A stretch of DNA of 64,000 nt from Thermoplasmata archaeon (GTDB lineage: Archaea; Thermoplasmatota; Thermoplasmata; Halarchaeoplasmatales; Halarchaeoplasmataceae). The notes beneath the pieces were generated by a model that was given only the letters and a program-made list of their open reading frames with translations, made no database searches and had not been told where the DNA came from. The stretch covers positions 93 to 64,092 of the forward strand of contig PUNK01000035.1 in NCBI GenBank assembly GCA_003552585.1, read 5' to 3'. Both the position numbers and the translations under genes were made by a program. Positions 11,741-60,206 of the stretch are shown one piece after another (the first letter of the stretch is position 1; every line of letters starts with the position of its first letter).

Positions 11741-11947
11741 CCCAACGGATAAATTACCTTTCGGTCGAACCGATAATAATTATGTAGGTTATAGTTTTCT
11801 TATGGAAAATACACCCCTTTTCGCCCGTTTGATCCTTCCAAAAAGAATAAAACTATACTAAATCTTTTATAGGACTTGCTTTCATCAATCCTTCCCTGAA
11901 GAGTTGTTTCCTCTTCACATATGCTAATATCCCAAGGAGGATCAAAT

Positions 11948-34409: not shown

Positions 34410-34505
34410 GCTCCTGTGGTGTAGTCCGGCCAATCATTTCGGCCTTTCGAGGCCGATCCCGGCCGTAGATAGCCGAATACCTGGGTTCGAATCCCAGCAG
34501 GAGCA
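34410..34505 (+). tRNA. tRNA-Glu(UUC) with a 21-nt intron (mature length 75 nt)
   Basis: Hand-folded: acceptor GCTCCTG/CAGGAGC. D-arm GTGTAGTCCGGCCAATCAT is typical of archaeal tRNA-Glu. Anticodon stem TCGGC/GCCGA, loop CTTTCGA (anticodon TTC). T-arm CTGGG-TTCGAAT-CCCAG. Discriminator A. Confidence 0.75.
34450..34470 (+). other. tRNA intron (inserted at/after position 37-38 of the anticodon loop)
   Basis: Removing the 21 nt (AGGCCGATCCCGGCCGTAGAT) restores a canonical 7-nt anticodon loop and 5-bp stem. The intron duplicates the GGCCGA of the stem, consistent with a bulge-helix-bulge fold. Confidence 0.55.
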
Positions 34506-45716: not shown

Positions 45717-47676
45717 GCTTTACGAAAGACTTTGTCGAAGAGTGAATCAACTTGTAGGTGTCGATAGGGAGACGCTGGAATCTCGAAGGGAGGAGAAGAG
45801 AGATAAATTTTTAGAAAGTAAGGATGATCTGAGAAGGGCAGAGGTGAGTTTGAGAGAAGCATCGATATTAGATGGGAAGGGATCCAAAGAGTACAAAGAA
45901 GCTTCAAGTGAAGTCGAAAGAAAAAAGAAAATTTTGAAGAGGGCGAAGGAGTCATATACCCAGGAACGATTCGAGAAAACAGTATATTTTACTGGTATGG
46001 ACCTTGTGCAGGAGGAGGTTTTAAATTTTGCCGTAGTAGTCTTTTTAACTACCTTTTTCGCACTTCTTACAGGTATATATGTCTATCATATCTATCGTCC
46101 TATGAGTATTGTAGAACTTACTATGTACGTGATCCCCACCCTCCTCATCATCCCTTTACTTTCATTGTTATTTACCGCCAATTATCCGGAAATACTTGAG
46201 AAACGATTACAGGCAGAGTCAATAGGTAAAGCTCCTGAGAGTATCAATTATATGACCATGTCTATGAGGGTAAAACCTTCACTATTTCAAGCCCTGAAAT
46301 TCGCTTCTGAAAATGCTGAGGAGCCCATGGCCAGCGGATTAAAAAAGGTACTTTGGGAGGTATACACACGAAAGAGGTCTAGCATAGAAGAGTCCTTCAT
46401 GGCCTTCGCTCTCGAATGGGGTGAATGGAACGATGACCTAAAAAGATCTTTATTCTCTATTCGCTCAGCCGTGCTCGAAAAAACAAAAGAGGGCCTGGAA
46501 GGTTCGTTAGAACGGGCTAACGATATCATAATCGATGGAACCAAACAACAGGTAAAAGAATTTTCAGACTCTTTGAGCATGCCCACCACCGTTCTTTTTG
46601 CGATAGGTATAATCCTTCCCATAATGATCGGGGCCTTACTCCCAATGATGAGTATAAGCGACCTGGACATGATGCAGGAACAAACTACGAGCGGAGTCGG
46701 TATCTTTCAGATGGTTTTGATGATGAACATCGTCACCCCCATCGCTGCATTCATGTATTCCTACTATATACTATCAAAACGCCCAGGCACCGTTTCACTG
46801 CCACGCGTCGACCTTAGAGAGGATAAAACATCGGCTTTCATCGCTTTCATCATATTCGTTATTCTCTTTTTTGTATTTTATATATCTAGGGGATCTTTAT
46901 CTTATTTGATGCCACTACCTCTATTGTGGCCCCCCGTCTTTTCCCTTTCCTTTTACTTGTTGGTCACATCCTCAAAACCACGTCAGACTAGGAGGGAATT
47001 TATAAAGATGGAGAAGGAATTTCCAGATACTCTTTTTCAACTGGGCAGCCGCTTGGCTGAAGGTGCCCCTGTAGAAACCGCTCTCACATCGGTTTCCAAA
47101 AGTATGGAGGGAGCCAAGATAGCTGAGTTATTTACAAGGATATCTAACACGTGTAGGCTGCATCAGATGTCTATGGAAACCGTACTTTTCGGTAAAGAGG
47201 GTATGCTGAATGAACACCCTTCAAGTATGATAAGAGCCAGTATGAAAGCGGTAGTATCATTATCAAAAAAAGTGGCTGGTGAGGCGGGATTAACTGTGAT
47301 GCGGATTTCTAATTACCTTAAAGATATGCAGATGATGGAAGAGGATATGCGATCCGAACTTTACAGCTCGGTACAGATGATGGAAGCTACATCTATGTTC
47401 TTTGCACCTGTGGTCATGGGGGTTGTTACCGGGATGTACCATCTACTGTATGAGATATTCTTGGATATCTCAGGAGCACAATTGATATCGCCCTCGAATT
47501 TTACTGCTGTGATCTCGGTTTACTTATTGACCACCGGTTTTGTCGTAACTTACTTTACAGAGGGGATAAAATCTAGAAATGATCCTATCGAGTTTAGATA
47601 CTCACTAGGAAGGATGCTTCTTGTATGTACCGTACTTTACTCCACTGTCCTCTGGTTATCGGGTCTACTCCTCTGA
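45709..47676 (+). CDS. polytopic membrane platform protein (FlaJ/TadC-like, T2SS-F-like)
   Basis: 655 aa. Alternating cytoplasmic helical domains and TM bundles. Start overlaps the ATPase stop by 8 nt. Confidence 0.55.
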   Translation: MSRLYERLCRRVNQLVGVDRETLESRREEKRDKFLESKDDLRRAEVSLREASILDGKGSKEYKEASSEVERKKKILKRAKESYTQERFEKTVYFTGMDLVQEEVLNFAVVVFLTTFFALLTGIYVYHIYRPMSIVELTMYVIPTLLIIPLLSLLFTANYPEILEKRLQAESIGKAPESINYMTMSMRVKPSLFQALKFASENAEEPMASGLKKVLWEVYTRKRSSIEESFMAFALEWGEWNDDLKRSLFSIRSAVLEKTKEGLEGSLERANDIIIDGTKQQVKEFSDSLSMPTTVLFAIGIILPIMIGALLPMMSISDLDMMQEQTTSGVGIFQMVLMMNIVTPIAAFMYSYYILSKRPGTVSLPRVDLREDKTSAFIAFIIFVILFFVFYISRGSLSYLMPLPLLWPPVFSLSFYLLVTSSKPRQTRREFIKMEKEFPDTLFQLGSRLAEGAPVETALTSVSKSMEGAKIAELFTRISNTCRLHQMSMETVLFGKEGMLNEHPSSMIRASMKAVVSLSKKVAGEAGLTVMRISNYLKDMQMMEEDMRSELYSSVQMMEATSMFFAPVVMGVVTGMYHLLYEIFLDISGAQLISPSNFTAVISVYLLTTGFVVTYFTEGIKSRNDPIEFRYSLGRMLLVCTVLYSTVLWLSGLLL

Positions 47677-48201
47677 AATATTTCTTACGTGATCTATCCC
47701 TCTTTTTAAAGCACGCATGTTAAGATCTACAAACCTTGGTGGAACGGTATCCTTTACAGATTCCTCCAGCGCCTTTTCAGGGACGAGTCCAGCGGCTTCG
47801 TTGAAAGCCCCTATCATGACTATATTTGCAACGATGGTGTTACCCAACTCTTCGGCTATGTTTTTTGCTGGGACCTTTATCGCCTCTTCATAGTCTACAT
47901 AGGGGACCGTGTCCGGATCGATAACTACTACCGCATCATCGCTGAGGTCGTTGCTGTATTTGTCGAAGGCAGCCTGGGACATGACCATCATGTACTGGGT
48001 TTCAGGAAGTCCGCTGTAACCGATCTCTCTATCTGATATGATCACCTCTGAACGGGCTGCACCTCCTCTTGCCTCTGGCCCATAACTCTGTGCCTGGATC
48101 GCTTCGTAATCGTGGAAAACACTGGCAGCCTTTCCGAGGATATAGCCTGCGGTCATGATCCCTTGTCCCCCACTCCCGCACAAGCGTATATTTTTTCTCA
48201 T
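47665..48201 (-). CDS. korG: 2-oxoacid:ferredoxin oxidoreductase gamma subunit
   Basis: N-terminus IRLCGSGGQGIMTAGYILG typical of Por/Kor gamma. Confidence 0.8.
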   Translation of the reverse strand: MRKNIRLCGSGGQGIMTAGYILGKAASVFHDYEAIQAQSYGPEARGGAARSEVIISDREIGYSGLPETQYMMVMSQAAFDKYSNDLSDDAVVVIDPDTVPYVDYEEAIKVPAKNIAEELGNTIVANIVMIGAFNEAAGLVPEKALEESVKDTVPPRFVDLNMRALKRGIDHVRNISEE

Positions 48202-49061
48202 TCTTCCAACTCCTTCAAAAGTCTGTAATATCTTTCCTCTAGTGGTTCACGCTCCTCTTCATGAAGGACTCCGATCTTTATCATCTTGTCTGCCCTTTCT
48301 TTTTCCTCTTCAGAACCGAACTTCTGGATCTTTTCATAATCCTCTACAAGTATGGTGTTCTTCTCGTAGAATTCCCACAGATCCTGTAGCTGCCTGTACC
48401 TATTCCGCCGTCCGTAGGCTGTTGGACATGGTGAAAGTAGCTCGATCAGTGAAAAACCATTGTTTTCTAAGCCCTCGCTTATAGAGCTGATCGGTTGATG
48501 CGGTCTGAACACGGGCCACTTTGCAACGTAGCTGGCACCCGATGAGATAGCCATCTTGCTTATATCGAATGGTGGTTCTATGTTGCCGTAAGGTGCTGTT
48601 GTTGCCTTATCCTTCTCAGGAGTAGTTGGGGCAACCTGCCCGCCGGTCATACCGTAAATAAAATTGTTGACGACGATAACTGTCATGTTGAGATTTCTCC
48701 TGGCAGCGTGGATGAAATGGTTTCCACCAATACCTATACAGTCACCGTCGCCTGTGAAAACGATCACATTGAGGTCGGGTTCACTCATCTTCACTCCTGT
48801 GGCGAATGCCAGGGCACGTCCGTGTGTAGTATGTAGTGCATCCGCTTCTATGTAACCTGGTATCCTTGACGAACAACCGATACCGGAAAGGAAAACGGTT
48901 CTATCCATATCAAGTCCCACTCTATCTACGGCTCTGAGGGTGTAATCTATCACGTTACCTAGACCACAGCCGTCGCAGAAAATATGCGGCATCATATCCT
49001 TCCGTAGATATTTTTCTTGTAATTCCTTTCCACTGATCATCTTTTTATTATCATTGGCCAT
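48198..49061 (-). CDS. korB: 2-oxoacid:ferredoxin oxidoreductase beta subunit (TPP-binding)
   Basis: TPP motif GDGDCIGIGGNHFIHAARRNLNMTVIVVNNFIYGMTGGQ. Confidence 0.85.
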   Translation of the reverse strand: MANDNKKMISGKELQEKYLRKDMMPHIFCDGCGLGNVIDYTLRAVDRVGLDMDRTVFLSGIGCSSRIPGYIEADALHTTHGRALAFATGVKMSEPDLNVIVFTGDGDCIGIGGNHFIHAARRNLNMTVIVVNNFIYGMTGGQVAPTTPEKDKATTAPYGNIEPPFDISKMAISSGASYVAKWPVFRPHQPISSISEGLENNGFSLIELLSPCPTAYGRRNRYRQLQDLWEFYEKNTILVEDYEKIQKFGSEEEKERADKMIKIGVLHEEEREPLEERYYRLLKELEE

Positions 49062-49065
49062 CCTA

Positions 49066-50214
49066 TCACACCTCCTTCAGTATCTCATCCGGTGTATGCA
49101 CTTCGCCCCCGATCTTACTAGAAAGGACGACTTCACAGTCTGCGAACTCTTTTACCTTGTGATACAACTGTCCGGTATTCATCTCCACCACTACTATTTT
49201 ATCGACTTTTTTGGACAATTCTTTTACCGGGTCATTTGGGAAAGGCCACAGTGTTTTAAGCCTAAGGTATCCGATCTTTTTACCTTGATCTCGCCCTTTC
49301 GACATCGCTCCCAGGGCACTGCGGCTTGCTAGCCCATAGGAAAGAAGAACCACATCAGCGTCTTCGATGTTCCTCTCTTCAATATCTGTCAGCTCTTCCC
49401 GGTCATCAGTGATCTTTTCTATCTGTCTTCTCACGAGTCTATCGTGGTCCTCCTGGTCATCTGTAGCCGGAAAACCGTACTCATTGTGTGTAAGCCCTGT
49501 GACATAAGTGTGATATCCTGTACCGAAGGCAGCGAATTCGGGTACTTTTATATTCCCGTAATTCCCTTCGCCGAAAGGTACGTATTCTTCGGGTGGAACA
49601 TCAGGTTTCTTCCTTTCAAAAAGTTCGATTTCATCTGGGATGACAACTTTCTCTCTCATGTGTCCTATATCGGCACTGATCATCACGAACACCGGGCTCC
49701 TGTACTTTTCAGACAGGTTGAAAGCCTTGATCGTCAAATCGACCGTTTCTTGTATGGTATTCGGTGATAGTGCTATTGCCTGGTAGTCACCATGACTGCC
49801 GTACCTTGACTGCATGACGTCTCCTTCCGCTCCAAGAGTGGGTTGACCCGTGGAAGGGCCGGACCTTTGGACGTTTGCGAGTACGAGAGGAGTTTCAGTC
49901 ATGTAGGCAAAACCAATATTTTCCTGCATAAGCGAAAAACCTGGTCCGCTCGTGGCTGTCATAGCCTTTGCCCCTGTCCAGGAGGCTCCGATGACGGCAG
50001 CGATACTGGCCAATTCGTCTTCCATCTGTATATTCACTCCACCCACTTTAGGTATCAAGCTGGCCATCATCTCGGCGATCTCAGATGCAGGAGTGATCGG
50101 GTATCCTCCGTAGAAATTGCAACCCGCAAGAAGGGCACCGTAACAGACGGCGGTATCCCCGTGTATGAACTGCTTCTTTGGACCAAGAACTTTTTTTACC
50201 TTCTCAAGATTCAT
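49066..50214 (-). CDS. korA: 2-oxoacid:ferredoxin oxidoreductase alpha subunit
   Basis: GDTAVCYGALLAGCNFYGGYPITPASEI N-terminal core. Confidence 0.85.
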   Translation of the reverse strand: MNLEKVKKVLGPKKQFIHGDTAVCYGALLAGCNFYGGYPITPASEIAEMMASLIPKVGGVNIQMEDELASIAAVIGASWTGAKAMTATSGPGFSLMQENIGFAYMTETPLVLANVQRSGPSTGQPTLGAEGDVMQSRYGSHGDYQAIALSPNTIQETVDLTIKAFNLSEKYRSPVFVMISADIGHMREKVVIPDEIELFERKKPDVPPEEYVPFGEGNYGNIKVPEFAAFGTGYHTYVTGLTHNEYGFPATDDQEDHDRLVRRQIEKITDDREELTDIEERNIEDADVVLLSYGLASRSALGAMSKGRDQGKKIGYLRLKTLWPFPNDPVKELSKKVDKIVVVEMNTGQLYHKVKEFADCEVVLSSKIGGEVHTPDEILKEV

Positions 50215-50495
50215 GATCTGCCCCCAGCCTTTTTCTTTCTATCCACACCACAGCAGAGGAGTACCTTTTCCTTTTTAGAGGATTTTTTCTCCTCTTCCTC
50301 CTCGACTATGATGGCAAAATCAGGACATATCATCTCGCACAATCTACAACCGGTACACTTATCTTCGATCTCGATGGGTTCGTAGATGCCTCTCTCGTTG
50401 AGCTCTTCAGCCCTTTCCAGAGCATCGACGGGGCAGAAGCGTATGCACAGCCCACATCCCTTGCAGTATTCTTTGTTTACTTCTATCATTTTCAA
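50211..50495 (-). CDS. korD: 2-oxoacid:ferredoxin oxidoreductase delta subunit (2x[4Fe-4S] ferredoxin) with charged Cys-containing C-terminal tail
   Basis: CKGCGLCIRFCP and CTGCRLCEMICP. Tail EEEEEKKSSKKEKVLLCCGV. Confidence 0.75.
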   Translation of the reverse strand: MKMIEVNKEYCKGCGLCIRFCPVDALERAEELNERGIYEPIEIEDKCTGCRLCEMICPDFAIIVEEEEEKKSSKKEKVLLCCGVDRKKKAGGRS

Positions 50496-50501
50496 TCCAC
50501 C

Positions 50502-52157
50502 TTATAGGGTGACGCTAATGTCTAGATGCCTTTCCAATACCTTTTTACCTCTGTATTCTGGCAGCAACCTCGGCGAAGTGTCTTTAGTATCTATACCGGC
50601 CTTTTCGAGGTCTTCTGTATGTTTATCGATGTGTTCGAGGCTCAATTTTGCAGGTGAACCGGCTTTCTGAGCCCGTTTCGCGGCGGCCATACCCGCTCGT
50701 CTTCCGAAAACGTTGAAATCCAGTAATGAATTACCCATCAGACGGTTCTTACCGTGGATCCCACCTGAAACTTCACCACTAGCGAATAAACCTTTAACAG
50801 GAGTAGATCCGTCGGGATTTATCACAAGACCTCCATTCTGGTAGTGGAGCGTTGGGAAAACAAGTATCGGGTCCTTTGTCATGTCTATACCGAACCTCTT
50901 GTATTGTCTGACCATGGCCGGAAGCCTGTCTTCTATAGTTCCTTCGCCTTCCAACTCGTCTATCAGAGGCGAGTCAAGCCATACTCCTTTCATACCTGTA
51001 GGAGTCGTGACCCCTTTTTCTCTTCCATAGCACTCTCGGATTATCGCGGCGGCTTCAACATCCCTCGGTTCAAGAGGGTTGACGAACATCTCACCGTCAA
51101 CATTCACCGGTTGAGCGCCCAGACTTCTTACTTTCTCCGTGACTAGGAGACCTACGACTTGATCAGGATGTGCAGCGCCTGTCGGGTGATACTGTACACT
51201 GTCCATATCTCTTAGAGGTACGCCCGCCCGATAACCCATGACAAGACCATCAGCTGTCGCACCGTAATGGTTCGTGGTCGGATAGGATTGTATGTGAAGT
51301 CTGCCGAATCCACCTGTGGCCATGATGGTGGATTTTGCTCGAACGACATAATATTCGTTCGTTTCGAGGTTCATCAGCAATGCTCCTGTCACTTCTCCGT
51401 TTCCATCTGTAAGTAGTTCGACTGCCGGAGCGAATTCTAAGACCGGTATATCTTTGTTCCTGAATTCGTCTCTTAGTACCCTCATTATCTCCATACCGGT
51501 ATAATCGCCCGCCGAGTGAAGTCGGTATCTTGATGTCCCTCCTCCCGGAAGTTCAACGAAATCGCCGTCTTTATCCCTATCGTACATCACACCGAGTTCT
51601 TCATGCCACTTCATTATCTTAGGCGCATCCTCGGTGAGCGCTTTCAATAAAGCCTCGTCATTAGTGAAGTGCCCTCCTCCTATGGCATCTAGGTAATGTT
51701 GTATAGGCGAATCGATCTCTTTATCAGCAGCCTGTATGCCTCCCTGGGCCATCATGCTGTTCGAGTCTCCGTGCCTCAGCTTCGTGGCCAAAAGGATATT
51801 TTCGGGAGAGATTCCCTCTTTGACGGCCCATAGAGCGGCTACGGTACCGGCTCCGCCACCGCCGATTATCAATATATCGACATCGTGATCTATCTGTGAC
51901 AAGTCCACCTCATCCGGATCTATCAGGCTTGGTGAATGGAGCAGTTGAGCTAATTCGACAGGGGCCTTTTCACCCTTGCTGGGACCAACGACCAGTTCTT
52001 TTTTACCTTCTTCCCTGTAATCCGGATGGAACCTGTTGAGGACCTCTTCAGATTCTTCCGCACCCATCCTTTCGAAGGTCTTTCCAACCCTTTCAGACCG
52101 GGTTTTTTCGACCTTTTCGATGGACTTCCTCATGTGATCTGGGTAACCGTCTTCCAT
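50502..52157 (-). CDS. fumarate reductase/succinate dehydrogenase flavoprotein subunit (TfrA/SdhA-like) with ~90-aa N-terminal extension
   Basis: FAD motif IIGGGGAGTVAAL. RHGDSNSMMAQGG (covalent-FAD His region). Catalytic region HYTMGG-like. Confidence 0.8.
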   Translation of the reverse strand: MEDGYPDHMRKSIEKVEKTRSERVGKTFERMGAEESEEVLNRFHPDYREEGKKELVVGPSKGEKAPVELAQLLHSPSLIDPDEVDLSQIDHDVDILIIGGGGAGTVAALWAVKEGISPENILLATKLRHGDSNSMMAQGGIQAADKEIDSPIQHYLDAIGGGHFTNDEALLKALTEDAPKIMKWHEELGVMYDRDKDGDFVELPGGGTSRYRLHSAGDYTGMEIMRVLRDEFRNKDIPVLEFAPAVELLTDGNGEVTGALLMNLETNEYYVVRAKSTIMATGGFGRLHIQSYPTTNHYGATADGLVMGYRAGVPLRDMDSVQYHPTGAAHPDQVVGLLVTEKVRSLGAQPVNVDGEMFVNPLEPRDVEAAAIIRECYGREKGVTTPTGMKGVWLDSPLIDELEGEGTIEDRLPAMVRQYKRFGIDMTKDPILVFPTLHYQNGGLVINPDGSTPVKGLFASGEVSGGIHGKNRLMGNSLLDFNVFGRRAGMAAAKRAQKAGSPAKLSLEHIDKHTEDLEKAGIDTKDTSPRLLPEYRGKKVLERHLDISVTL

Positions 52158-52160
52158 CTT

Positions 52161-52862
52161 CTATCCCTCCTCCTCGAACTTACGTTCTTCATAGCACTTT
52201 TTGAGCTCATCTATAGTCATCTTCAACATCTCTTCGTATTCTTCAGTATATATTCCTTCCTCTAGCTCTTTTATCCTTTTCTCAAGCTCACTGCTGTCTA
52301 GATCCAGATATCGTCCTTTTAATCGTCTCGCCAGCTGGGCAAGATGGTAGTGTTTTATATCTGCTGGACATCTGATGGAGCAGAGCCCACAGTGTAAGCA
52401 GTCGAATGAGAGCTTTGCAGTCCTTTCGACGTCGCCGCGTAAAGCAGCTTGGACATAATCCATCACTTCGATGTCTTGAGGACAGGCCTTGCTGCACGTG
52501 TTACAGCTGACACATCTAGCGATCTCGGGATAGAGATCGAGTAACACGTTGTCCTTCTCCCCAGGATCCACGTCTTCTATTTCATATGCTTCCCTGAGGG
52601 CGGGTACGAAGGGTAACTGCACCAGGAACATCCCGTCTTCGACCGCAGTTTGACATGCGAGATCCATCTTGAGCTTATAGTCATCTTCCTTTCTATATAC
52701 GGTGGAACAGGCTCCACAGAAACCTCCTCTGCAGCCGCATCCCCTCACATACTTGTAACCAGCGTATTCGAGTGCAGTCATTATAGTGAGTCCCTCGGGA
52801 ACCCTGTATCTCCTGCCCATGACGTATATGTCTATCATATTTTGTTCTTCTTGATCAGCCAT
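52161..52862 (-). CDS. iron-sulfur subunit (SdhB/FrdB-like: [2Fe-2S] + 2x[4Fe-4S])
   Basis: CGCRGGFCGAC plant-ferredoxin-like cluster, then CVSCNTCSKACP and CLHCGLCSIRCP. Confidence 0.75.
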   Translation of the reverse strand: MADQEEQNMIDIYVMGRRYRVPEGLTIMTALEYAGYKYVRGCGCRGGFCGACSTVYRKEDDYKLKMDLACQTAVEDGMFLVQLPFVPALREAYEIEDVDPGEKDNVLLDLYPEIARCVSCNTCSKACPQDIEVMDYVQAALRGDVERTAKLSFDCLHCGLCSIRCPADIKHYHLAQLARRLKGRYLDLDSSELEKRIKELEEGIYTEEYEEMLKMTIDELKKCYEERKFEEEG

Positions 52863-52867
52863 TCATA

Positions 52868-53722
52868 TCACTCCAAGAAATCTTTAAGCGCACCTCTTGG
52901 GTTTATCTTATGTTTTTTTAGCCCCGCTTCCATACCGAACGACAGCGCCATCAACTCGGTGAGGTATAACACGGGTATTTTATGATCACTAACTCGTTGA
53001 TGATAATCGAGGTTGAACTGACATAACGGACACGAGAGTGCTATTACATCCGCCCCGTCTTCAGCGGCACGTGCCACGATCTCCTCGACCCTATTTTCCA
53101 CGATATCTCCCCTGTTCACTGTATGGTAAGAACCGCAGCACTCGGTCCTTTTGGGATTAACGATGGTATTTGCACCAAGGAGCTCGAGTATGTCCTCCAT
53201 GATCATCGGATCTTCGGTGTTATCTATGGAAACATGGTTCGGCCTTAGCAACATGCATCCGTAATAAGTGACGACGTTCAAACCGTCTAGTGGCTTTTTG
53301 ACCAACTTTTTTATCTCATCCTTCATATCTCTAAAAAGTTCAAAGATGTGATGAACTTCGACCTGACCTTCGTAATCAGGGTCTTCGTCCAAAAATTCAT
53401 TCATCGTTTCCAGTTCATCCGGTTTTTCTTTCATCCTCTTGTTGGCCTGTTTCAGCACGTTGTAGCACATATCACAGAGGGTGACCAGTTCTCTCTCACC
53501 TTGCTCTTGAGCACACAACATGGTCCTCACAGCGGCGATCTGATGCATTATGTCATCTGTTGCCAGGGACTGCACGGCGCCGCAGCAGTACCAGTTATCC
53601 ATTTCAACCAGTGGTTTACCCAATGCTTCCATGACCTTTTTAGAGCTCTCTTCGTAGTCACTGGCCTTGGTTTTTAACGTGCATCCAGGATAATAAAGGT
53701 AGCCATCCTCCATCTGTATCAC
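52868..53722 (-). CDS. HdrB-like protein with two CCG domains (heterodisulfide reductase B / TfrB C-terminal half / SdhC type E-like)
   Basis: YYPGCTL..., WYCCGA and ECCGSYH Cys-rich CCG motifs. Confidence 0.75.
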   Translation of the reverse strand: MIQMEDGYLYYPGCTLKTKASDYEESSKKVMEALGKPLVEMDNWYCCGAVQSLATDDIMHQIAAVRTMLCAQEQGERELVTLCDMCYNVLKQANKRMKEKPDELETMNEFLDEDPDYEGQVEVHHIFELFRDMKDEIKKLVKKPLDGLNVVTYYGCMLLRPNHVSIDNTEDPMIMEDILELLGANTIVNPKRTECCGSYHTVNRGDIVENRVEEIVARAAEDGADVIALSCPLCQFNLDYHQRVSDHKIPVLYLTELMALSFGMEAGLKKHKINPRGALKDFLE

Positions 53723-54105
53723 CCCGTCTCCTTCCTGAAGCAGCCGACTACGGCGAGCTGAGGTAGCTCCTCTATGTTATCTAAACCATCCAGGTCGACC
53801 ATATCTATATCCTCTCTCAGCAAAGTCAATCTGACCGCTTCCATTATCTTAGCGATGTCTATATCTCTTGGACATCTTACGCTGCAGGTAAAACAGGCCG
53901 CACAGATCCACATCGTGTTGTTTTTCATTATCCCCTCTCGATCCCCTAAAACTATCCGCTTGAATATCCTTTCTGGTAATACATCCATCTCTTCAACAAA
54001 AGGACATCCTGCGGAACAGGTACCACAGCGTATACAAGCATTTACCGACTCACCTGACAGCTCTTCCACCTTTTCTAGAAATTCCAGATCCCTTTTCACC
54101 TTCAT
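53719..54105 (-). CDS. HdrC-like 2x[4Fe-4S] ferredoxin subunit
   Basis: CIRCGTCSAGCP and CAACFTCSVRCP; 128 aa. Confidence 0.7.
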   Translation of the reverse strand: MKVKRDLEFLEKVEELSGESVNACIRCGTCSAGCPFVEEMDVLPERIFKRIVLGDREGIMKNNTMWICAACFTCSVRCPRDIDIAKIMEAVRLTLLREDIDMVDLDGLDNIEELPQLAVVGCFRKETG

Positions 54106-55559
54106 GATCTACCACCCAATCCCTGTGAAAAGGTCTTATAGACTTTTTTATCGTTATCGTAAAGGGTCACTTTCATGGGCGTATCCCCCATAGCTGAGTG
54201 GGTAGCACAAGCAAGACACGGATCGTAGGCTCTGAACGCTCTTTCAACACTGTTGAGCATACCTTCTTTTACATCTCCACCGTCAACGTATTTTTTTGCT
54301 GCGTCCCTGACACTCATGTTTATCGCTGCGGCATTGTGAAGAGTAGCTACGATGAGGTTCACCTCTTCTACAAGCCCCTCCTCGTCAAGTGTGTAATCAT
54401 GTATCAGTGTTCCTCGGGCAGCTTCAACTATACCTACACCTTTCCCGGGCTCACCGGGTTCGTTCCTTATATCGTTGTCCTCGATATTATCATCACGGAT
54501 CAGTTCATCTACCAGCTCGGCTGCCTGGAGGATCTCTATCAATCTCGCCCAGTGATAGGAAAGGGTTGAGTGAGCAGGCTTACCGCCCAGTGTTTCGAAC
54601 ATCTCTTCGTATTCTTCCTGAGCCTTGGGCGTCTGCATACCGTCCGCCGCATTCAACCTACCCAAAGTACCTACACGGTAAACTCCTGAATCTTCTCCCT
54701 CTTCAAATCCCTTCCATCCTATATCTTTCAGGTATGGGAATTTCATGTAGCTCCATGGTTCGACGTGCTCTCTTATCACATCCAAGTAATCCGCACCGGA
54801 GAACTCGGCATACTTCTTTCCGTCGGGATCAACGACCCTGACTTTACCATCCTTGTGGCTCACCTTATCATCTTTGACGAGACCCATGCTGTAGAGCTCT
54901 AAACGGTCCTCTTCTATGGGTTTTTTGTACTCCTTGAGTATCTTGTCTTTGAATAGATCGAGTGAAAATTTGGCGAAGTCCACCATCCCTTCGGAGATGT
55001 CCATTATCTCTTCCCTTTCATCAGGAGCTAGGGATCTGCTGACACCACCGGGTATTCCGAACATCGGATGGATAGCTTTGCCACCTAGTGTCGAGATCAC
55101 CCTTTGTCCGTTAGCTCTCTGTCGGATGACCTGCTTACCAACGTCGACTCCCATCTTATTTATGATGCCGATTATATTCCTCTCCTCCTTCGGTGCGTCG
55201 ACACCCATTATGAAATCGGGACTCGCTAGATAATAGAAATGAAGCAGGTGGTCAGCGTAGATATAGCCGTTGTACATCAATTCTCGCAGCTTGTTAGCCG
55301 TCTCAGTGGGTTCAACCCCGTAGGCGTCGTCCAGCGCCTTCGTGGCGGCCATGTGATGAGCCACGGGACACACACCACATATCCTGCTGGTCAGAGAGGG
55401 CATGTCCTCCGCTCTTCTACCCTGACAGAACTTTTCAAATCCTTTGTATTCGGGTACCTGCAGGTAAGCGTTCTTAACGTTCTTTTGTCCGTCCAAAAAT
55501 ATGTCTATCTTGCCGTGTCCTTCAAGTCTTGTTATCGGATCTATCGATATCTTATCCAT
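54102..55559 (-). CDS. mvhA: [NiFe] hydrogenase large subunit (F420-non-reducing hydrogenase MvhA-like)
   Basis: N-terminal RICGVC Ni-binding motif and C-terminal DPCLACATH motif, followed by a ~30-aa maturation tail. Confidence 0.85.
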   Translation of the reverse strand: MDKISIDPITRLEGHGKIDIFLDGQKNVKNAYLQVPEYKGFEKFCQGRRAEDMPSLTSRICGVCPVAHHMAATKALDDAYGVEPTETANKLRELMYNGYIYADHLLHFYYLASPDFIMGVDAPKEERNIIGIINKMGVDVGKQVIRQRANGQRVISTLGGKAIHPMFGIPGGVSRSLAPDEREEIMDISEGMVDFAKFSLDLFKDKILKEYKKPIEEDRLELYSMGLVKDDKVSHKDGKVRVVDPDGKKYAEFSGADYLDVIREHVEPWSYMKFPYLKDIGWKGFEEGEDSGVYRVGTLGRLNAADGMQTPKAQEEYEEMFETLGGKPAHSTLSYHWARLIEILQAAELVDELIRDDNIEDNDIRNEPGEPGKGVGIVEAARGTLIHDYTLDEEGLVEEVNLIVATLHNAAAINMSVRDAAKKYVDGGDVKEGMLNSVERAFRAYDPCLACATHSAMGDTPMKVTLYDNDKKVYKTFSQGLGGRS

Positions 55560-56526
55560 CTACATCACCTCTGCGGTACTGCAGGTAACTGCTTGGAAGA
55601 CTGAACGTGTAGAACGAGCCAGTAGGATCCCTTATGCTGTCTATCGCCTCTTGAAGTTCGTCCTCTTCCATATTCTCTTCCCCTTCTATACCAACTACGG
55701 AAGCCAATGCGGAAAGCATCCTCGATCCCTGGTCTTTCATGCCTCTCACCGGACCGTTGCATCCGACACATGGATGAGCTGCTACCGATGGGCAAGGGGC
55801 TTCACACATCCCCGCCGTGGCAGGACCCATGCACAGGACACCTTGGTCAAGTATACACTTCTCTGGATCTATACTGACTTCCTGTATCGGTCTTATCTTC
55901 TCTATCCTCTTTTCCTCCCTATCCATCGCACACACGTCACAAACACTCTTCTGGGAGATCAGGTCGTACTTACCCACGTCTTCGTCACCCAAAAGGGCGG
56001 TGAACGCCTCTTCAAGCTGGACAGGTAAAGGGGGACATCCTGGAAGATAATGATCCACCTCTATCACCCTATCCAGGGGAACGACGTGATGTAGTAGAGA
56101 CGGTAATTCGAGTTCCCCTTCCTCCACCTTTGATTCATTTTGAGGTCTTACACCATCGTCTGTAGAGCGTGTCGAGTAACCGACCTCTATCAGTTCCTCC
56201 TTTGAAGAGAGGTTACCCAGGCCGAAGAGTCCCCCGATGCTCGAACATGAGCCGTAGGCAACGACCTTTTTAGCTTTCTCTCTGATGAGTTCGACCATCT
56301 CTTTGTTCTCTTCAGACCTTATCGAACCGTTTATGAAAGCTATGTCGATCTCCTCGTCCTCCATTGCTTCTAGGTCTTCATATTTAGGATCCATAGCACA
56401 GGGCCAGAAAACGATGTCAGCCTTTTCTATAACGTCAAGTATCATCTCGTCTATGTCGAGTACACTAACTTCACAACCACCACATGCGGCACACCAGTAA
56501 AACGCGATCTTTTTCTTCATCATCAT
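55552..56526 (-). CDS. mvhG: [NiFe] hydrogenase small subunit (MvhG-like)
   Basis: IAFYWCAACGGCEVS proximal cluster motif and further Cys clusters. Confidence 0.85.
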   Translation of the reverse strand: MMMKKKIAFYWCAACGGCEVSVLDIDEMILDVIEKADIVFWPCAMDPKYEDLEAMEDEEIDIAFINGSIRSEENKEMVELIREKAKKVVAYGSCSSIGGLFGLGNLSSKEELIEVGYSTRSTDDGVRPQNESKVEEGELELPSLLHHVVPLDRVIEVDHYLPGCPPLPVQLEEAFTALLGDEDVGKYDLISQKSVCDVCAMDREEKRIEKIRPIQEVSIDPEKCILDQGVLCMGPATAGMCEAPCPSVAAHPCVGCNGPVRGMKDQGSRMLSALASVVGIEGEENMEEDELQEAIDSIRDPTGSFYTFSLPSSYLQYRRGDVDG

Positions 56527-56948
56527 TCCTCCAGGGGCACATCGCTCAGGTCGAGAGGACCGAGCTGTTTCACTTCTTCAACCATTTCTTTCATAACTTT
56601 TGCGAACTTACCCCCCTCCGCTGATGATATCCATTCTAGACGCAATCTTTCCGGGTTTATCCCCATATCTTTTAGTATCTTGGACATCATCTCTATCTTC
56701 CTTTTGGTCTTATAGTTCCCGTTTATATAATGGCAGTCTCCCGGGTGACATCCTGCCACTAGTACCCCATCAGCTCCCTCCTGAAACGATTCGAGGACGT
56801 GCTCAGGTGAAACACGGGAGGAGCACATCAGGCGGATACTCAATATGTTGGGCGGGTACTGTTCCCTGTTAACGCCGGCCAGGTCGCCTCCTGCGTAACT
56901 GCACCAATTACAGAGAAAAGCTATGATCCTTGGTTCATGCTCATCCAT
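56523..56948 (-). CDS. mvhD: methyl-viologen-reducing hydrogenase delta subunit (MvhD)
   Basis: PRIIAFLCNWCSYAGGDLAG typical MvhD [2Fe-2S] region. Confidence 0.85.
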   Translation of the reverse strand: MDEHEPRIIAFLCNWCSYAGGDLAGVNREQYPPNILSIRLMCSSRVSPEHVLESFQEGADGVLVAGCHPGDCHYINGNYKTKRKIEMMSKILKDMGINPERLRLEWISSAEGGKFAKVMKEMVEEVKQLGPLDLSDVPLEE

Positions 56949-56949
56949 A

Positions 56950-59900
56950 TCACATCACCTCTTCTTCCATCAAGGCCGCCTGTATCATGGCGTTGATCGT
57001 CTCGTTATCGTATCCCTTTTGGTCTATAGCGCCTATGGGACAAACACTGGCACATGCTCCGCATCCTTTACACAACACGTCCGTTATCTTTGCTATCTCA
57101 TCTTCAGGATCGTGTTCTATCGCACCATAAGGGCACACGGATATGCACATCTTACATCCGCTGCATAGATCATCGTCCACTACTGAGATTATACCTTCGC
57201 TCTTGGAGTAGCCTTTCATCATGGGTACGAGTGCTTTGGAAGCTGCACCTTCAGCCTGGGCTAACGTATCAGCGACGTTCTTCGGATAATGGGCGCCCCC
57301 TGCTAGATAAACGCCTTCTGATGGGAATTCAAGCGGTCTAAGCTTAGCGTGGGCTTCCATGTAGAAGCTTGCAGGATCAGAGGCCACCTTCAACATCTTC
57401 TTAAGATCGTTGACGCTCGAGTCGCCCTCTAGCTGCATCGCCAGTACAAGGTAATCCGCATCGATCTCGAGGTCCTCGTCCAACAAGTTGTCGTGAACTT
57501 TGACACCGATCCTTTCACCCACTTCTATCTCTGGTTCGTTCTCGGTGGAATACCTGAGGAATATGACACCTTCATCCCCCTCGACTTCCATATAATATTC
57601 TTCTTCTTTCTTACCGAACACTCTCATATCCTTGTAGAGTATGTATACGTTCGCGTCAGGGTAGCGTCTTTTTATCTCTTTGGCATTCTTCAGGGAGTTA
57701 CCACAGCCAACCCTGCAGCACCACGGACGCTCTTCCTCTAGAGCTCCGACACAGTTGATGAAGACGATGTCTTTCGGTTCCTCCAGCTCATCCTTCTTTA
57801 GAGATCGGTCGAGCTCGAGCTGGGTCATGATCCGGTCATCTTCACCGTAAGAATAGAAATCCTTCGGATCTATCTCTTGGAATCCGGTTGCGAGTACAAT
57901 CGTGTCGACCTCGATCTCTTCTTCGTTAACGGTAACTTCGTAGTTGCCTATGTACCCGTCTATACCTTCGATCTTTGCAGAGGTGATAACCCTGATGTCT
58001 TCTTCATCGATTTGATGTATCAGTTCTTTAGCGAATTTCTCTGCATCTATCTCGGATGGGAAAAGGGTGTCTAATTCGTTCAGCTTGCCTCCCAATCTAT
58101 CCTCCTTTTCCACAAGGGTGACCTCCTGTCCGGTTTGAGAAAGGCTCAAAGCCGTGCGCATACCTGCCGGCCCCCCACCGATAACAAGGGTCCTGTTGCC
58201 AACATCGATCTCGCTTTCGGTCAGAGCATAAAGCCTTCTTGCCTTAGCCACGGCCATCTTTGTTAGGATTTCCGCCTTCTTGGTTGCTTTCTCGTTGTCA
58301 TCACTGTGTACCCAACTGCACATGTTACGGATGTTAGCCATCTCGAAAAGGTACTTGTTCAATCCTGCTTCCTCGAGGGTCTGCTGGAACACCTGCTCGT
58401 GAGTTCGGGGTGAACAGGCGGAAACGACTATCCTGTTCAGATCATGTTCATCTATGGCCTCTTTGATCAATTTCTGGGCATCCTCAGAACATGCGAATAC
58501 GGAATCGTTTACGTATACGACTCCCGGCAGGTCTTTAACAGATTCTGAAACGCTGTTGACATCTAGATAATTGGCGATGTTTTTACCGCAGTGACACACG
58601 AAAACACCTATCCTGGGTTCCTGATCAGACACATCTTTTTCAGGTGTCTTTTCAGTTTTCTTTTTCCACCTTTCTCTTCCTTTGAGCGGTTCAAGAGCTC
58701 TCCCTGCAGCTCCACTCCCTTGGGCAACACTGTCCGGTATGTCCTTTGGCGACTGGGCACAGCCTGCTAGGTATATGCCCTCTCTTGAAGAATCCATAGC
58801 ATCGGTGAGATCCTCTTTGGATTGGAAGAATCCGTTCTCATCCAATTCTATATCCAATATCTTTGACAGCTCTTCGTTTCCCGAGGAAGGCATGATGGCT
58901 GACGAAAGGACGACCATGTCGACGTGGTCCGTTTTAACCTCTCCTTTCTCGGTATCCTCAAATTCTATGGCTAAACTACCATCCGGTTCTTCGTAAATAC
59001 GAGAGGGCCTTCCACGTATGTAATTCACTCCCTTCTTTTTTGCCTTGTCGTAGTACTGCTGGAAGTCCTTACCATAGGTCCTCATGTCCATGTAATATAT
59101 GGAGGTATCAACATCGGACATCTCGCTTTTAGTGATGGATGCCTGCTTCGTTGCATACATACAGCAGACCCTAGAACAGTAAGGCATACCCTTTTGTTTG
59201 CAGCGTGAACCGACACATTGGATCCATGCTATCGACTCAGGTTCTTTGCCATCTGAGCGCTTCAACGGTTTTCCACCGGTTGGGCCCGAAGCCGACATCA
59301 ATCTTTCGAACTCCAAGGCCGTGTAAACGTTGTCATATCTGGTGTATCCATACTCGTCTCTCCATTCCTGTGGCTGCATCATCTCGTAACCAGTGGCCAC
59401 TATGATACTGCCCACCTCTATCTCTATCTCTCGTGATTTTTCAAGGAAATCTATGGCATCTGCATCACAAATGCGCTCGCAAGCACAACAGCCCACGCAG
59501 TGGTCATAGTCAATCGTATATGTTAGAGGGACAGACTGTGGATATTCCACATATATCGCTTTTCTATAGCTCATCTCCTGTTCGAATTCACTAGGAACCT
59601 GAACGGGACAGGCATCTGCACAATCTCCACATCCTGTGCAGATATCAGGATCCACGTATTTCGTTTTTTTCCAGATCTTAACATTGAATCTTCCGGCACT
59701 TCCAAGCACTTCTTTGACCTCTGAGTAAGTAAGGATGTCGATATTCTCGTTTCTGCTCGCTTCTACCATCTTTGGCGAAGATATACAGATAGAACAGTCA
59801 TTTGTGGGAAAGGTCTTATCCAGTTTGACCATATTTCCCCCGATACTAGGGGATTTATCCACGATTACAACCTCGTAACCCTTTTCAGCCAGATCAAGAG

Positions 59901-59952
59901 CGGATTGAACACCGGTGATTCCGCCTCCGATTATTAGGACGTCTTTTTTCAT
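56950..59952 (-). CDS. hdrA: large HdrA-like flavoprotein (1000 aa) with two dinucleotide-binding modules, internal MvhD-like segment and C-terminal 2x[4Fe-4S] ferredoxin
   Basis: VLIIGGGITGVQSALDLA at aa 5 and TLVIGGGPAGMRTALSL at aa ~600. RIGVFVCHCGKNIANYLD (MvhD/HdrA-insert-like) at aa ~450. CSGCKMCISVCP and CKGCGACASVCP at the C-terminus. Confidence 0.8.
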   Translation of the reverse strand: MKKDVLIIGGGITGVQSALDLAEKGYEVVIVDKSPSIGGNMVKLDKTFPTNDCSICISSPKMVEASRNENIDILTYSEVKEVLGSAGRFNVKIWKKTKYVDPDICTGCGDCADACPVQVPSEFEQEMSYRKAIYVEYPQSVPLTYTIDYDHCVGCCACERICDADAIDFLEKSREIEIEVGSIIVATGYEMMQPQEWRDEYGYTRYDNVYTALEFERLMSASGPTGGKPLKRSDGKEPESIAWIQCVGSRCKQKGMPYCSRVCCMYATKQASITKSEMSDVDTSIYYMDMRTYGKDFQQYYDKAKKKGVNYIRGRPSRIYEEPDGSLAIEFEDTEKGEVKTDHVDMVVLSSAIMPSSGNEELSKILDIELDENGFFQSKEDLTDAMDSSREGIYLAGCAQSPKDIPDSVAQGSGAAGRALEPLKGRERWKKKTEKTPEKDVSDQEPRIGVFVCHCGKNIANYLDVNSVSESVKDLPGVVYVNDSVFACSEDAQKLIKEAIDEHDLNRIVVSACSPRTHEQVFQQTLEEAGLNKYLFEMANIRNMCSWVHSDDNEKATKKAEILTKMAVAKARRLYALTESEIDVGNRTLVIGGGPAGMRTALSLSQTGQEVTLVEKEDRLGGKLNELDTLFPSEIDAEKFAKELIHQIDEEDIRVITSAKIEGIDGYIGNYEVTVNEEEIEVDTIVLATGFQEIDPKDFYSYGEDDRIMTQLELDRSLKKDELEEPKDIVFINCVGALEEERPWCCRVGCGNSLKNAKEIKRRYPDANVYILYKDMRVFGKKEEEYYMEVEGDEGVIFLRYSTENEPEIEVGERIGVKVHDNLLDEDLEIDADYLVLAMQLEGDSSVNDLKKMLKVASDPASFYMEAHAKLRPLEFPSEGVYLAGGAHYPKNVADTLAQAEGAASKALVPMMKGYSKSEGIISVVDDDLCSGCKMCISVCPYGAIEHDPEDEIAKITDVLCKGCGACASVCPIGAIDQKGYDNETINAMIQAALMEEEVM

Positions 59953-59974
59953 GGTAACCTACCACGGGAATTAG

Positions 59975-60180
59975 GTAATCTGTTTGGCGGGAATGTCAAG
60001 GGGTTAATAATACCTTTGGTAATATTTTGAAAATGCATGCCAACCAGATTGATGAATCATAGTGGTACGAGGTGGTATTTAAATGTTTTCTATTACCTTG
60101 TAAAATTATACATAATAGGTTGTTTAGTATCCATCATTTTTTAAAAAGTTATAAATATATGAGTGAGGATATCATGCATA
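59975..60180. promoter_or_regulatory. divergent AT-rich intergenic region holding the promoters of the hdrA operon (minus) and the USP gene (plus)
   Basis: TATA-like TTATAAATATAT ~35 nt upstream of the USP ATG. On the other strand, ATTATTAA ~55 nt upstream of the hdrA ATG. Confidence 0.35.
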
Positions 60181-60206
60181 CTGAATAATAAAGTTGGCTG
60201 TTTAGT

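Follow-up and report, generated by a model that had tools for sequence, protein, structure and literature searches.

The 64,000-nucleotide stretch of contig PUNK01000035.1 (positions 93 to 64,092, assembly GCA_003552585.1 of a Thermoplasmata archaeon), called the window below, carries on its minus strand twelve consecutive genes (47665–59952). They encode an Mvh-type [NiFe]-hydrogenase, a module resembling heterodisulfide reductase (HdrABC), a two-subunit fumarate-reductase-like enzyme (FrdB-like and FrdA-like) and a four-subunit 2-oxoacid:ferredoxin oxidoreductase (Kor). The operon is read, with a probability of roughly 0.55, as coding for a soluble complex that bifurcates electrons from H2 to fumarate and ferredoxin and is coupled to 2-oxoglutarate synthase. 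This reading is based on which genes are present and in what order, on cofactor motifs and catalytic residues, on synteny conserved across genomes and on the swapping of modules between loci.

In the proposed mechanism H2 would be oxidized at MvhA, and the electrons would pass through MvhG and MvhD to the bifurcating flavin adenine dinucleotide (FAD) of a tandem HdrA. The downhill electron could then run through HdrC, the two CCG clusters of HdrB and the 2Fe-2S/2x[4Fe-4S] chain of the FrdB-like subunit to the non-covalent FAD of the FrdA-like subunit, where fumarate would be reduced to succinate. The second electron from the HdrA flavin would be driven uphill onto ferredoxin. For each fumarate, ferredoxin would be reduced by one two-electron equivalent, which KorDABG would use for carboxylation of one succinyl-CoA to 2-oxoglutarate, in a reductive branch of the tricarboxylic acid (TCA) cycle or in the complete reductive TCA (rTCA) cycle. 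One reduced ferredoxin per succinate matches the demand of Kor per succinyl-CoA carboxylation.

The potentials concerned are −414 mV for H+/H2, about +30 mV for fumarate/succinate, about −500 mV for ferredoxin in vivo and −140 mV for the heterodisulfide of methanogens, so fumarate provides a stronger electron pull than the heterodisulfide. From these textbook potentials, the reaction of 2 H2, fumarate and oxidized ferredoxin yields about −70 kJ per reaction. An H2-driven bifurcation to fumarate and to ferredoxin for Kor had been suggested in an earlier note made on the sequence. It agrees with the conserved synteny, the exchange of Mvh for Flx inputs, the intact fumarate site and the lack of a flavinylation histidine; the complex itself, the bifurcation and the direction remain predictions.

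Hydrogenase and Hdr subunits

All twelve open reading frames (ORFs) announced in the earlier note are present at the positions given there, and their domain assignments hold in Pfam and NCBIfam. The parts of an Mvh-HdrABC complex are all found, with intact cofactor motifs.

The first gene (56950–59952) encodes a tandem HdrA-like flavoprotein of 1000 amino acids (aa), which scores 1035.6 bits with the NCBIfam model HdrA2 (cut-off 1100) and matches HdrA of the Protein Data Bank (PDB) entries 8rvu/5odc with an E-value of 1e-205 in three stretches. Residues 5–375 form an FAD/TrxR-like core with an inserted ferredoxin domain and align to residues 154–524 of HdrA in the solved Mvh-Hdr complex. Residues 438–597 align to the N-terminal domain of HdrA (4–163), residues 598–854 represent a second, divergent FAD domain without the ferredoxin insert, and residues 855–996 align to the C-terminal ferredoxin domain with 2x[4Fe-4S]. 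All four domain types known from HdrA of MvhAGD-HdrABC are present, spread across the fusion. The duplication of HdrA seen in the earlier note is genuine: the two halves share 31% identity across 252 aa (E 7e-33), and each contains a GxGxxG motif. As a novelty of the locus the tandem was discarded, since double-HdrA fusions had been listed before as frequent among Asgard and TACK archaea (PMC11237513).

MvhD (56523–56948, 141 aa; PF02662 FlpD, E 9e-56; VhuD, 128.8 bits) is the putative [2Fe-2S] adaptor between hydrogenase and HdrA. The small subunit of the [NiFe]-hydrogenase, MvhG (55552–56526, 324 aa), contains 14 Cys and is recognized by PF01058 and VhuG (195.7 bits). MvhA (54102–55559, 485 aa; PF00374; VhuA, 408 bits) is a large subunit of the group-3c type, with the Ni-binding motifs RICGVC...H and DPCLACATH and a C-terminal tail for maturation cleavage. 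In the PDB it matches MvhA (5odc_F, 407.6 bits) and the large subunit of a bifurcating NiFe hydrogenase (7t2r_D, 425.6 bits). The Vhu models of NCBIfam give the top scores for all three subunits, yet under their equivalog cut-offs; the assignment to group 3c follows from the motifs, the match to 5odc_F and Pfam.

The HdrC-like protein (53719–54105, 128 aa; Fer4_17/Fer4_8) carries two CxxCxxCxxxCP motifs and is about 55 aa shorter than HdrC of methanogens (about 185 aa). It reaches about 66 bits with the QmoC and HdrC models (cut-off for HdrC, 160) and matches PDB HdrC 8rvv_C over residues 5–92 (E 7e-17). The HdrB-like protein (52868–53722, 284 aa; PF02754 twice; PDB HdrB, E 2e-34) comprises two CCG domains, each with five Cys (C14, C45, C46, C82 and C85; C155, C194, C195, C230 and C233), which are predicted to hold non-cubane [4Fe-4S] clusters. 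It scores nearly alike with HdrB TIGR03288 (151 bits, cut-off 345) and with SdhE, the anchor of methylmenaquinol:fumarate reductase (MFR) (144.5 bits, cut-off 500). By their Cys motifs, the pair has the two CCG motifs of HdrB and the two [4Fe-4S] motifs of HdrC that characterize MvhAGD-HdrABC. No mcr, coenzyme M (CoM) or coenzyme B (CoB) genes occur among the annotated ORFs of the window, as the earlier note had stated for methanogenesis genes.

Fumarate-reductase-like subunits

The FrdA-like flavoprotein (50502–52157, 551 aa) matches PF00890 only (residues 94–478, E 3e-70). A conserved N-terminal extension of 93 aa precedes its FAD-binding and capping domains, and the C-terminal domain of SdhA and TfrA (PF02910) was not found with Pfam. 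The model of TfrA, the flavoprotein of thiol:fumarate reductase (TFR), gives 340.3 bits against a cut-off of 718 and covers positions 7–424 of 546; NadB models give 270 bits. An AlphaFold2 model (pLDDT 58.5) was too poor for a fold search.

Active-site residues were read from alignments to the SdhA chains 1nek and 7d6v. H324, T340, E341, R344, R365, H438 and R472 correspond to H242, T254, E255, R258, R286, H354 and R399 of E. coli SdhA; the alignment of R365 is clear against 7d6v and gap-shifted against 1nek. With the FAD_binding_2 fold and a complete C4-dicarboxylate site, made up of His/Arg catalytic pairs, a capping-domain Thr-Glu and a proton-shuttling Arg, the protein belongs to the SdhA/FrdA/NadB superfamily. 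Asn133 aligns to the FAD-linking His45 of E. coli SdhA and to its M. smegmatis equivalent. In an alignment of 82 sequences (the window protein and 81 relatives), N133, H324, T340, E341, R344, R365, D366, H438 and R472 are invariant in 82/82. Enzymes of the superfamily with non-covalent FAD reduce fumarate and oxidize succinate inefficiently, whereas efficient succinate oxidation needs covalent FAD. Because Asn occupies the flavinylation site in every sequence, the FrdA-like protein probably binds FAD non-covalently and points to a reductase-only enzyme.

The FrdB-like Fe-S subunit (52161–52862, 233 aa; Fer2_4 and Fer4 families) combines a Cx4Cx2C...C [2Fe-2S] motif in its N-terminal part with two complete CxxCxxCxxxCP motifs, a set resembling that of type E SdhB and TfrB. 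Pfam finds in it neither a CCG domain nor a PF13085 match. Its sole link to a named Tfr protein is a match to the start of the TfrB model (positions 19–84, about 65 residues; E 1e-9). The same model is covered piecewise by three neighboring products, namely by the FrdB-like (19–84), HdrC-like (127–222) and HdrB-like (266–485) proteins, so TfrB acts as a Rosetta-stone fusion linking these subunits.

The earlier note had described the pair as thiol:fumarate-reductase-like and similar to type E succinate dehydrogenase. The pair is not canonical, since the C-terminal domain, the CCG domain and PF13085 are absent and the 93-aa extension is added. TFR identity was rejected on the low TfrA score and the lack of CCG in the FrdB-like subunit; identity with type E complex II was rejected on Asn133 in place of the FAD-linking His. 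Type E and MFR enzymes carry covalent 8-alpha-N3-histidyl FAD, bound to the His of an R-S-H-T/S motif. Judged from the sequences, either label is an analogy and not a membership, and the literature label 'TfrAB' is a misnomer for the FrdBA family, which has no CCG domain, no C-terminal domain, an N-terminal extension and Asn at the flavinylation site. Public annotations name the two proteins 'FAD-binding protein' (FrdA-like) and '4Fe-4S dicluster domain-containing protein' (FrdB-like).

2-Oxoacid:ferredoxin oxidoreductase

All four subunits (alpha, beta, gamma and delta) known from four-subunit 2-oxoglutarate:ferredoxin oxidoreductases (OGOR) are encoded. KorD (50211–50495, 92–94 aa) is the 2x[4Fe-4S] delta subunit (Fer4 families; OGOR_delta, 67.8 bits vs 125). 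Its start is more likely ATG at 50489 than TTG at 50495, because the spacing of the GGTGGA motif suits ATG better. The alpha subunit KorA (49066–50214, 382 aa; POR_N and PFOR_II) exceeds the cut-off of PRK08659 (541 bits, cut-off 411). Its top PDB match is a generic 2-keto acid enzyme (1yd7_A, E 7e-136), and the 2-oxoglutarate synthase 8ys5_A follows with an E-value of 3e-82. KorB (48198–49061, 287 aa; TPP_enzyme_C), the thiamine pyrophosphate-binding beta subunit, has as its best NCBIfam match the beta model of 2-oxoglutarate ferredoxin oxidoreductase (259.6 bits, cut-off 364). The gamma subunit KorG (47665–48201, 178 aa) is recognized by PF01558 and PRK08537 (189.9 bits). Pyruvate and VOR models score far below the 2-oxoglutarate-type models for Kor.

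Conservation of the gene arrangement

The FrdA-like family was searched for in one genome per GTDB species, and at least 598 genomes were confirmed among 600 candidate stretches. Identity within the family is 58–80% across domains. The archaeal lineages concerned are Thermoplasmatota, Theionarchaea, Methanofastidiosum-like archaea, Asgard archaea of the Heimdall-, Thor- and Odin-type, Bathyarchaeia and Korarchaeia. The twelve proteins of the window were then mapped on the best 80 of these at least 598 loci and on one Asgard contig.

In 73/73 loci the FrdB-like gene lies directly upstream of the FrdA-like gene. Of the 65 loci having enough upstream sequence, 51 contain HdrB and HdrC, and hdrC-hdrB-frdB-frdA are contiguous in most loci. 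Among the 37 loci with full flanks, HdrA, MvhD, HdrB and HdrC occur together in 28, Kor in 24, MvhAG in 15 and the complete set in 11; the Hdr set is combined with KorAB, with either Mvh or Flx input, in 22. Five Thermoplasmata metagenome-assembled genomes (MAGs; loci L002, L003, L009, L010 and L012) share the identical order of all twelve genes at 66–84% aa identity. Same-order loci come from soda-lake and salt-lake MAGs, including CSSed10_214 and Ca. Haladaptatiplasma. In loci L004–L008 and L011 of the same Thermoplasmata group, contig ends interrupt the locus. L004 is a 5.8-kb contig (PWGF01000061.1) filed under 'Spirochaetaceae bacterium T1Sed10_196'; it carries mvhA-hdrC-hdrB-frdB-frdA-korD-korA in Thermoplasmata order at 62–82% aa identity and probably belongs to a Thermoplasmata archaeon, having been mis-binned into a bacterial MAG.

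Outside this group the parts recur in other orders. The kor genes lie upstream in Heimdallarchaeota, in another Asgard MAG and in other Thermoplasmata, and on both sides in Bipolaricaulota/Acetothermia and Thermotogae-labelled MAGs. The mvhGA genes are lacking in loci of Chloroflexales, 'Eubacteriales', Spirochaetota and one Heimdall archaeon (L068), where the mvhD-like gene is followed by three genes with the domains FrhB_FdhB_C plus Fer4, Fer4_22, and NAD_binding_1 plus DHODB_Fe-S. By its domains, this set is a FlxC/B/A-type NAD(P)H module, which makes Mvh and Flx interchangeable input modules. Two loci of Thermoplasmata/Thermoplasmatota (L045, 565–11641; L062, 1–18072) show either two HdrC-HdrB pairs or as many as three HdrA of tandem type around one FrdBA, which suggests that several Hdr complexes, each with its own partners, coexist.

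Chance clustering is far from sufficient to explain the arrangement: the same order is found in related loci and the same parts, in other orders, across many phyla. Since the input module and the position of Kor vary while the rest stays, the conserved core is HdrA-MvhD/FlxD-HdrC-HdrB-FrdB-FrdA, to which an exchangeable input for H2 or NAD(P)H and, frequently, Kor are added. The earlier note would have given up functional coupling if the order proved widespread and annotated as separate, unrelated operons. The arrangement is widespread indeed, but it recurs as a conserved unit; this was not accepted as a refutation, since a conserved unit with swappable inputs argues for coupling.

In a census of 109 non-core neighbor genes from 36 loci, fumarase was the most frequent family (class I; six alpha and four beta subunit genes), and malic enzyme, glutamate dehydrogenase and HycI protease were each found four times. 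In the closest relative (L002, CSSed10_214), genes of the beta and alpha subunits of class-I fumarase (574–2021) lie divergently upstream of hdrA; at this position the window has a Usp gene and an M29 peptidase gene.

The same mechanism could apply far beyond the window, although this generalization is tentative and its odds are put somewhat below even. Fumarate, in place of an unknown disulfide, would then be the high-potential acceptor of Mvh/Flx-HdrABC in many non-methanogenic archaea and bacterial phyla, the non-cubane clusters of HdrB would serve as a one-electron relay into a dedicated fumarate reductase with non-covalent FAD, and the whole would form a distinct bifurcating class feeding 2-oxoglutarate synthase with ferredoxin in fixed stoichiometry.

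Alternative explanations

Several observations weigh against a fumarate-reducing, Kor-coupled bifurcating complex. No biochemical or structural characterization of such a complex was found in the literature, for this organism or elsewhere. The FrdA-like protein stays under every NCBIfam cut-off, and fumarate as its substrate is deduced from residues. The FrdB-like subunit is not demonstrably a homologue of SdhB: no SdhB or FrdB chain stands among its listed best PDB sequence matches, its AlphaFold2 model is weak (pLDDT 69.8), and Foldseek against the PDB matched the N-terminal 2Fe-2S domain only (TM ~0.23). The specificity of Kor for 2-oxoglutarate is likewise a prediction from model scores. 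Searches of the window by tblastn with queries from related loci gave no fumarase, malic enzyme or glutamate dehydrogenase, and no succinyl-CoA synthetase or ATP-citrate lyase was found in these 64 kb. In five loci (L058, L059, L061, L064 and L074) the FrdB/FrdA pair has no Hdr gene within 10 kb. These loci, from WOR-3 and unclassified bacteria, have glutamate dehydrogenase, GltB-like and NuoE/F/G-like hydrogenase genes near FrdBA, and the electron donor in such genomes may be different or encoded elsewhere.

The HdrB-like protein keeps all ten Cys of the disulfide-reducing site, in two intact five-Cys CCG motifs, so a thiol/disulfide intermediate is possible. MvhAGD-HdrABC could reduce a low-molecular-weight or protein disulfide, and FrdBA, borrowing the HdrB-type CCG site, could re-oxidize the thiol with fumarate in the manner of TFR. 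Methanogen TfrB combines the same modules, to judge from the coverage of its NCBIfam model, and uses thiols; DsrC-like carriers were named among the options in PMC6315080. However, the FrdB-like subunit has no CCG domain and most clusters have one HdrB, adjoining FrdB, so a two-site shuttle is not encoded, and neither the operon nor the other annotated genes of the window include a CoM/CoB, DsrC or lipoyl-carrier gene. Such a shuttle is considered unlikely.

The system could also run in reverse. In this confurcating mode Kor would oxidize 2-oxoglutarate, and electrons from reduced ferredoxin and succinate would be released as H2, which would allow quinone-free succinate oxidation in amino-acid and glutamate catabolism. 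An oxidative, fermentative use fits the M14 and M29 peptidases, the aminotransferase and the OadAB-type Na+ pump encoded in the window, while the malic enzyme and glutamate dehydrogenase neighbors are compatible with either direction. By our estimate the reaction comes near equilibrium at about 1–3 Pa H2 or less and a low fumarate:succinate ratio, and H2-coupled succinate oxidation was proposed for Culexarchaeia (PMC9723716). Reverse operation is nevertheless rather improbable: about 70 kJ are released in the forward direction at standard H2, Asn at the flavinylation site in 82/82 sequences speaks against efficient succinate oxidation, and succinate is excreted by the one organism in culture that has a comparable operon (PMC7282089).

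It is quite improbable that the operon joins separate enzymes clustered by a shared pathway, with Mvh-Hdr using another acceptor and supplying ferredoxin to Kor, and FrdBA working independently with another donor, for example ferredoxin. The genomes with FrdBA but no nearby Hdr and the varying position of Kor would fit this, but hdrC-hdrB-frdB-frdA adjacency persists in phyla of both archaea and bacteria despite changes of the input module, FrdBA has no donor-binding domain recognizable by Pfam or NCBIfam, and no alternative Hdr substrate is encoded nearby. That the FrdA-like protein acts on L-aspartate, as NadB does, or on another enoate is very improbable: NadB models score only moderately lower than TfrA, all below family cut-offs, and the capacity for covalent FAD is absent as in NadB and soluble reductases, but NadB needs no Fe-S partner whereas the FrdA-like protein is always paired with one, fumarase is the top non-core neighbor, and both carboxylate-binding Arg/His pairs are invariant.

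Operon structure and transcription signals

The eleven junctions between the twelve genes comprise five gaps (1, 5, 3, 6 and 4 nucleotides, nt) and six overlaps (4, 8, 4, 4, 4 and 4 nt). From hdrA onwards they are a 1-nt gap (hdrA/mvhD), a 4-nt overlap (mvhD/mvhG), an 8-nt overlap (mvhG/mvhA), 4-nt overlaps (mvhA/hdrC and hdrC/hdrB), a 5-nt gap (hdrB/frdB), a 3-nt gap (frdB/frdA), a 6-nt gap (frdA/korD), a 4-nt overlap (korD/korA), a 4-nt gap (korA/korB) and a 4-nt overlap (korB/korG). The hdrC/hdrB value applies to the GTG start of hdrB at 53722, with a 5-nt gap resulting from ATG at 53713; the frdA/korD value applies to the TTG start, and the gap becomes 12 nt with ATG at 50489, two codons downstream. 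The tightness of the junctions claimed in the earlier note is confirmed, except that mvhG/mvhA (55559/55552) overlaps by 8 nt and does not fit its description as gaps of 1–8 nt or 4-nt overlaps.

Ribosome-binding motifs similar to GGAGG or GGTGA are found 5' of almost all twelve starts. No minus-strand T-run of six or more occurs in 47400–60300. A candidate archaeal TATA box (TTTAAATA, 60076–60083, minus strand) lies 124 nt upstream of the hdrA ATG, within the 254-nt intergenic region between hdrA and the divergent Usp gene. This site, 60083–60076, is the sole minus-strand match to TTTAWATA within 47.6–60.2 kb and could serve as the promoter of the operon. A scan for bacterial-type promoters and terminators gave matches at chance level, with a consensus that is bacterial and unsuited to an archaeal host.

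The flanking genes are unrelated and of opposite orientation: a convergent T2SSE/T2SSF-like pair downstream and the divergent Usp gene upstream. Over 12 nt (47665–47676), korG and the convergent T2SSF-like gene (45709–47676) share their 3' ends, which leaves no space for a terminator between both units. Given the tight junctions, the ribosome-binding motifs, the lack of internal T-runs or TATA boxes and the unrelated flanks, a single translationally coupled transcription unit is the natural reading, and the twelve genes would be co-transcribed.

Host and other genes of the window

The window opens with the last 294 nt of an archaeal large-subunit rRNA. The host, placed by this rRNA fragment and by the closest loci, is a halophilic, non-methanogen-like archaeon of the Thermoplasmatota, related most closely to MAGs of the PWKY01 / 'Haloplasmatales' group from soda and salt lakes.

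On the plus strand, an OadA-like carboxyltransferase/biotin carrier (11921–13744; HMGL-like, PYC_OADA and Biotin_lipoyl) is followed by an OAD_beta membrane subunit (13933–15036, E 7e-144). Together they form a Na+-translocating oxaloacetate-type decarboxylase, which hints at catabolism of C4-dicarboxylates and energy conservation through an ion gradient in the same organism.

Three further plus-strand features were noted. A 2232-aa protein (2079–8777) combines an N-terminal STT3 domain (AglB-type oligosaccharyltransferase) with many CarboxypepD_reg/transthyretin-like repeats, an unusual length for an archaeal AglB. An ORF of 1326 aa (23604–27584), 31% Glu, rich in K and L and continuously coiled-coil-like, has RNase_Y_N as its sole Pfam match, of a low-complexity type; it accounts for the extreme purine skew at 22–28 kb (GC skew to +0.51, AT skew to +0.47). 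A 96-nt tRNA gene (34410–34505; Rfam tRNA, 49.8 bits) apparently contains an intron, and ARAGORN gave no anticodon for it.

Significance

Mvh-Hdr genes of non-methanogenic archaea, including Asgard archaea, are routinely reported with an 'unknown disulfide' as acceptor, and fumarate is a concrete candidate for at least one such complex. If the proposal is true, the energy of fumarate reduction could be conserved as reduced ferredoxin independently of quinones and membranes, and the oxidation of H2 or NADH would be linked in fixed stoichiometry with the most difficult carboxylation step of the reductive TCA branch. As the family occurs in at least 598 species-representative genomes of both domains, one biochemical characterization would re-annotate thousands of genes. 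The analysis adds to earlier work the misnomer 'TfrAB', the definition of the core, the interchange of Mvh and Flx, the reach of the family into archaea including Asgard archaea, and the recurrent fumarase, malic enzyme and glutamate dehydrogenase neighbors.

Comparison with known systems

The earlier note recognized the gene order from no described system; comparable gene sets have, however, been published (PMC6315080, PMC7282089, PMC8542988). All six subunit types of MvhAGD-HdrABC of methanogens (PDB 5ODC, 8RVU) are found in the window with the same cofactor motifs, and HdrA, HdrB, HdrC and MvhA match chains of the methanogen complex in the PDB. The window differs in its 1000-aa tandem HdrA, with accessory domains split between the halves, in its shorter HdrC (by ~55 aa), in the two Frd-like genes right after hdrB and in the lack of a visible CoM/CoB context. 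Since frdBA directly follows hdrB, fumarate is predicted to take the place of the heterodisulfide as acceptor.

TfrAB of Methanothermobacter, represented by the best-scoring named model for the FrdA-like protein, is likewise soluble and quinone-independent and combines SdhB-like clusters with CCG domains. TfrB is one polypeptide including CCG, whereas in the window the CCG domains are found on a protein of their own, the HdrB-like one; the FrdA-like protein lacks the C-terminal third of TfrA, has 93 extra N-terminal aa and scores far below cut-offs. Type E succinate:quinone reductase and MFR (SdhABE) also join a CCG subunit, SdhE, to an SdhAB-type pair in which a second full [4Fe-4S] motif replaces [3Fe-4S]. 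The enzyme of Hydrogenobacter thermophilus is presented in a review as a soluble five-subunit NADH-fumarate reductase of the reductive TCA cycle (PMC13147460, citing Miura 2008). The type E, MFR and H. thermophilus enzymes differ by a canonical SdhA with its C-terminal domain, by the use of quinol or NADH and by the absence of a link to HdrA or hydrogenase.

The only cultured case with physiology is the 'succinate operon' of Pseudoclostridium thermosuccinogenes, which comprises fumarate hydratase, Flx-Hdr and fumarate reductase; H2 abolishes succinate formation in this organism (PMC7282089). A bifurcating fumarate reductase was proposed for it in a 2019 preprint by Koendjbiharie and van Kranenburg, as reported in PMC7282089. 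It shares with the window an Hdr-linked fumarate reductase and the proposed coupling of succinate formation to ferredoxin reduction, and differs by its NADH/Flx input and the lack of Kor. A protein search seeded with a Flx-type 'Eubacteriales' relative returned uncultured sequences only and did not confirm membership of the P. thermosuccinogenes fumarate reductase in the FrdA-like family.

Williams et al. (2021) described a single cluster of Ca. Celaenobacter (Cloacimonadota) that unites TFR and OGOR with Mvh (group 3c), Hdr, fumarase and succinyl-CoA synthetase (PMC8542988). As in the window, H2 input through Mvh is combined with Hdr, fumarate reductase and OGOR, and the set was read as an H2-driven reductive TCA pathway. 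The cluster is bacterial and has extra TCA genes, and its authors assumed a heterodisulfide intermediate of the CoM-S-S-CoB type (PMC8542988). The twelve genes of the window are contiguous and include a tandem HdrA, with neither fumarase nor succinyl-CoA synthetase.

The same mechanism, bifurcation to fumarate and to ferredoxin/OGOR, was proposed by Rubin-Blum et al. (2019) for the Flx-Hdr/TfrAB/KorABCD cluster of tubeworm symbionts and Thioflavicoccus mobilis, where korABCD and tfrAB lie scattered among flxABCD-hdrABC (PMC6315080). Mitchell et al. (2024) showed co-expression of such a cluster (PMC11636981), OGOR, Hdr-Flx and TfrAB were found in Bipolaricaulia UBA7950 of a brine pool (bioRxiv 10.1101/2023.11.26.568696), and a 2026 review and survey restated the bifurcation idea as a suggestion (PMC13147460). 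The published cluster and the window have three blocks in common, all in one orientation: Hdr, a Tfr-like reductase of two subunits and a Kor of four. Compared by description and not by sequence, the published cluster differs by NADH input through FlxABC, by its place among acl and rTCA genes and by its bacterial hosts. The window has hdrABC, the two-gene reductase, kor and an MvhD-linked input in one orientation, as Hdr-linked fumarate reductase/OGOR clusters do, but no embedding among rTCA genes (ATP-citrate lyase, fumarase, succinyl-CoA synthetase) was found within its 64 kb. Flx-type loci of the same FrdA-like family are present among the mapped loci.

For Ca. Natronoplasma/PWKY01, the closest lineage of the window, a 2024 study called the role of the group 3c hydrogenase unclear (PMC11287216). 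The idea of a bifurcating, Hdr-linked fumarate reductase is already published as genomic inference, and the locus described here is a new archaeal, H2-type, tandem-HdrA case of this known, inferred system.

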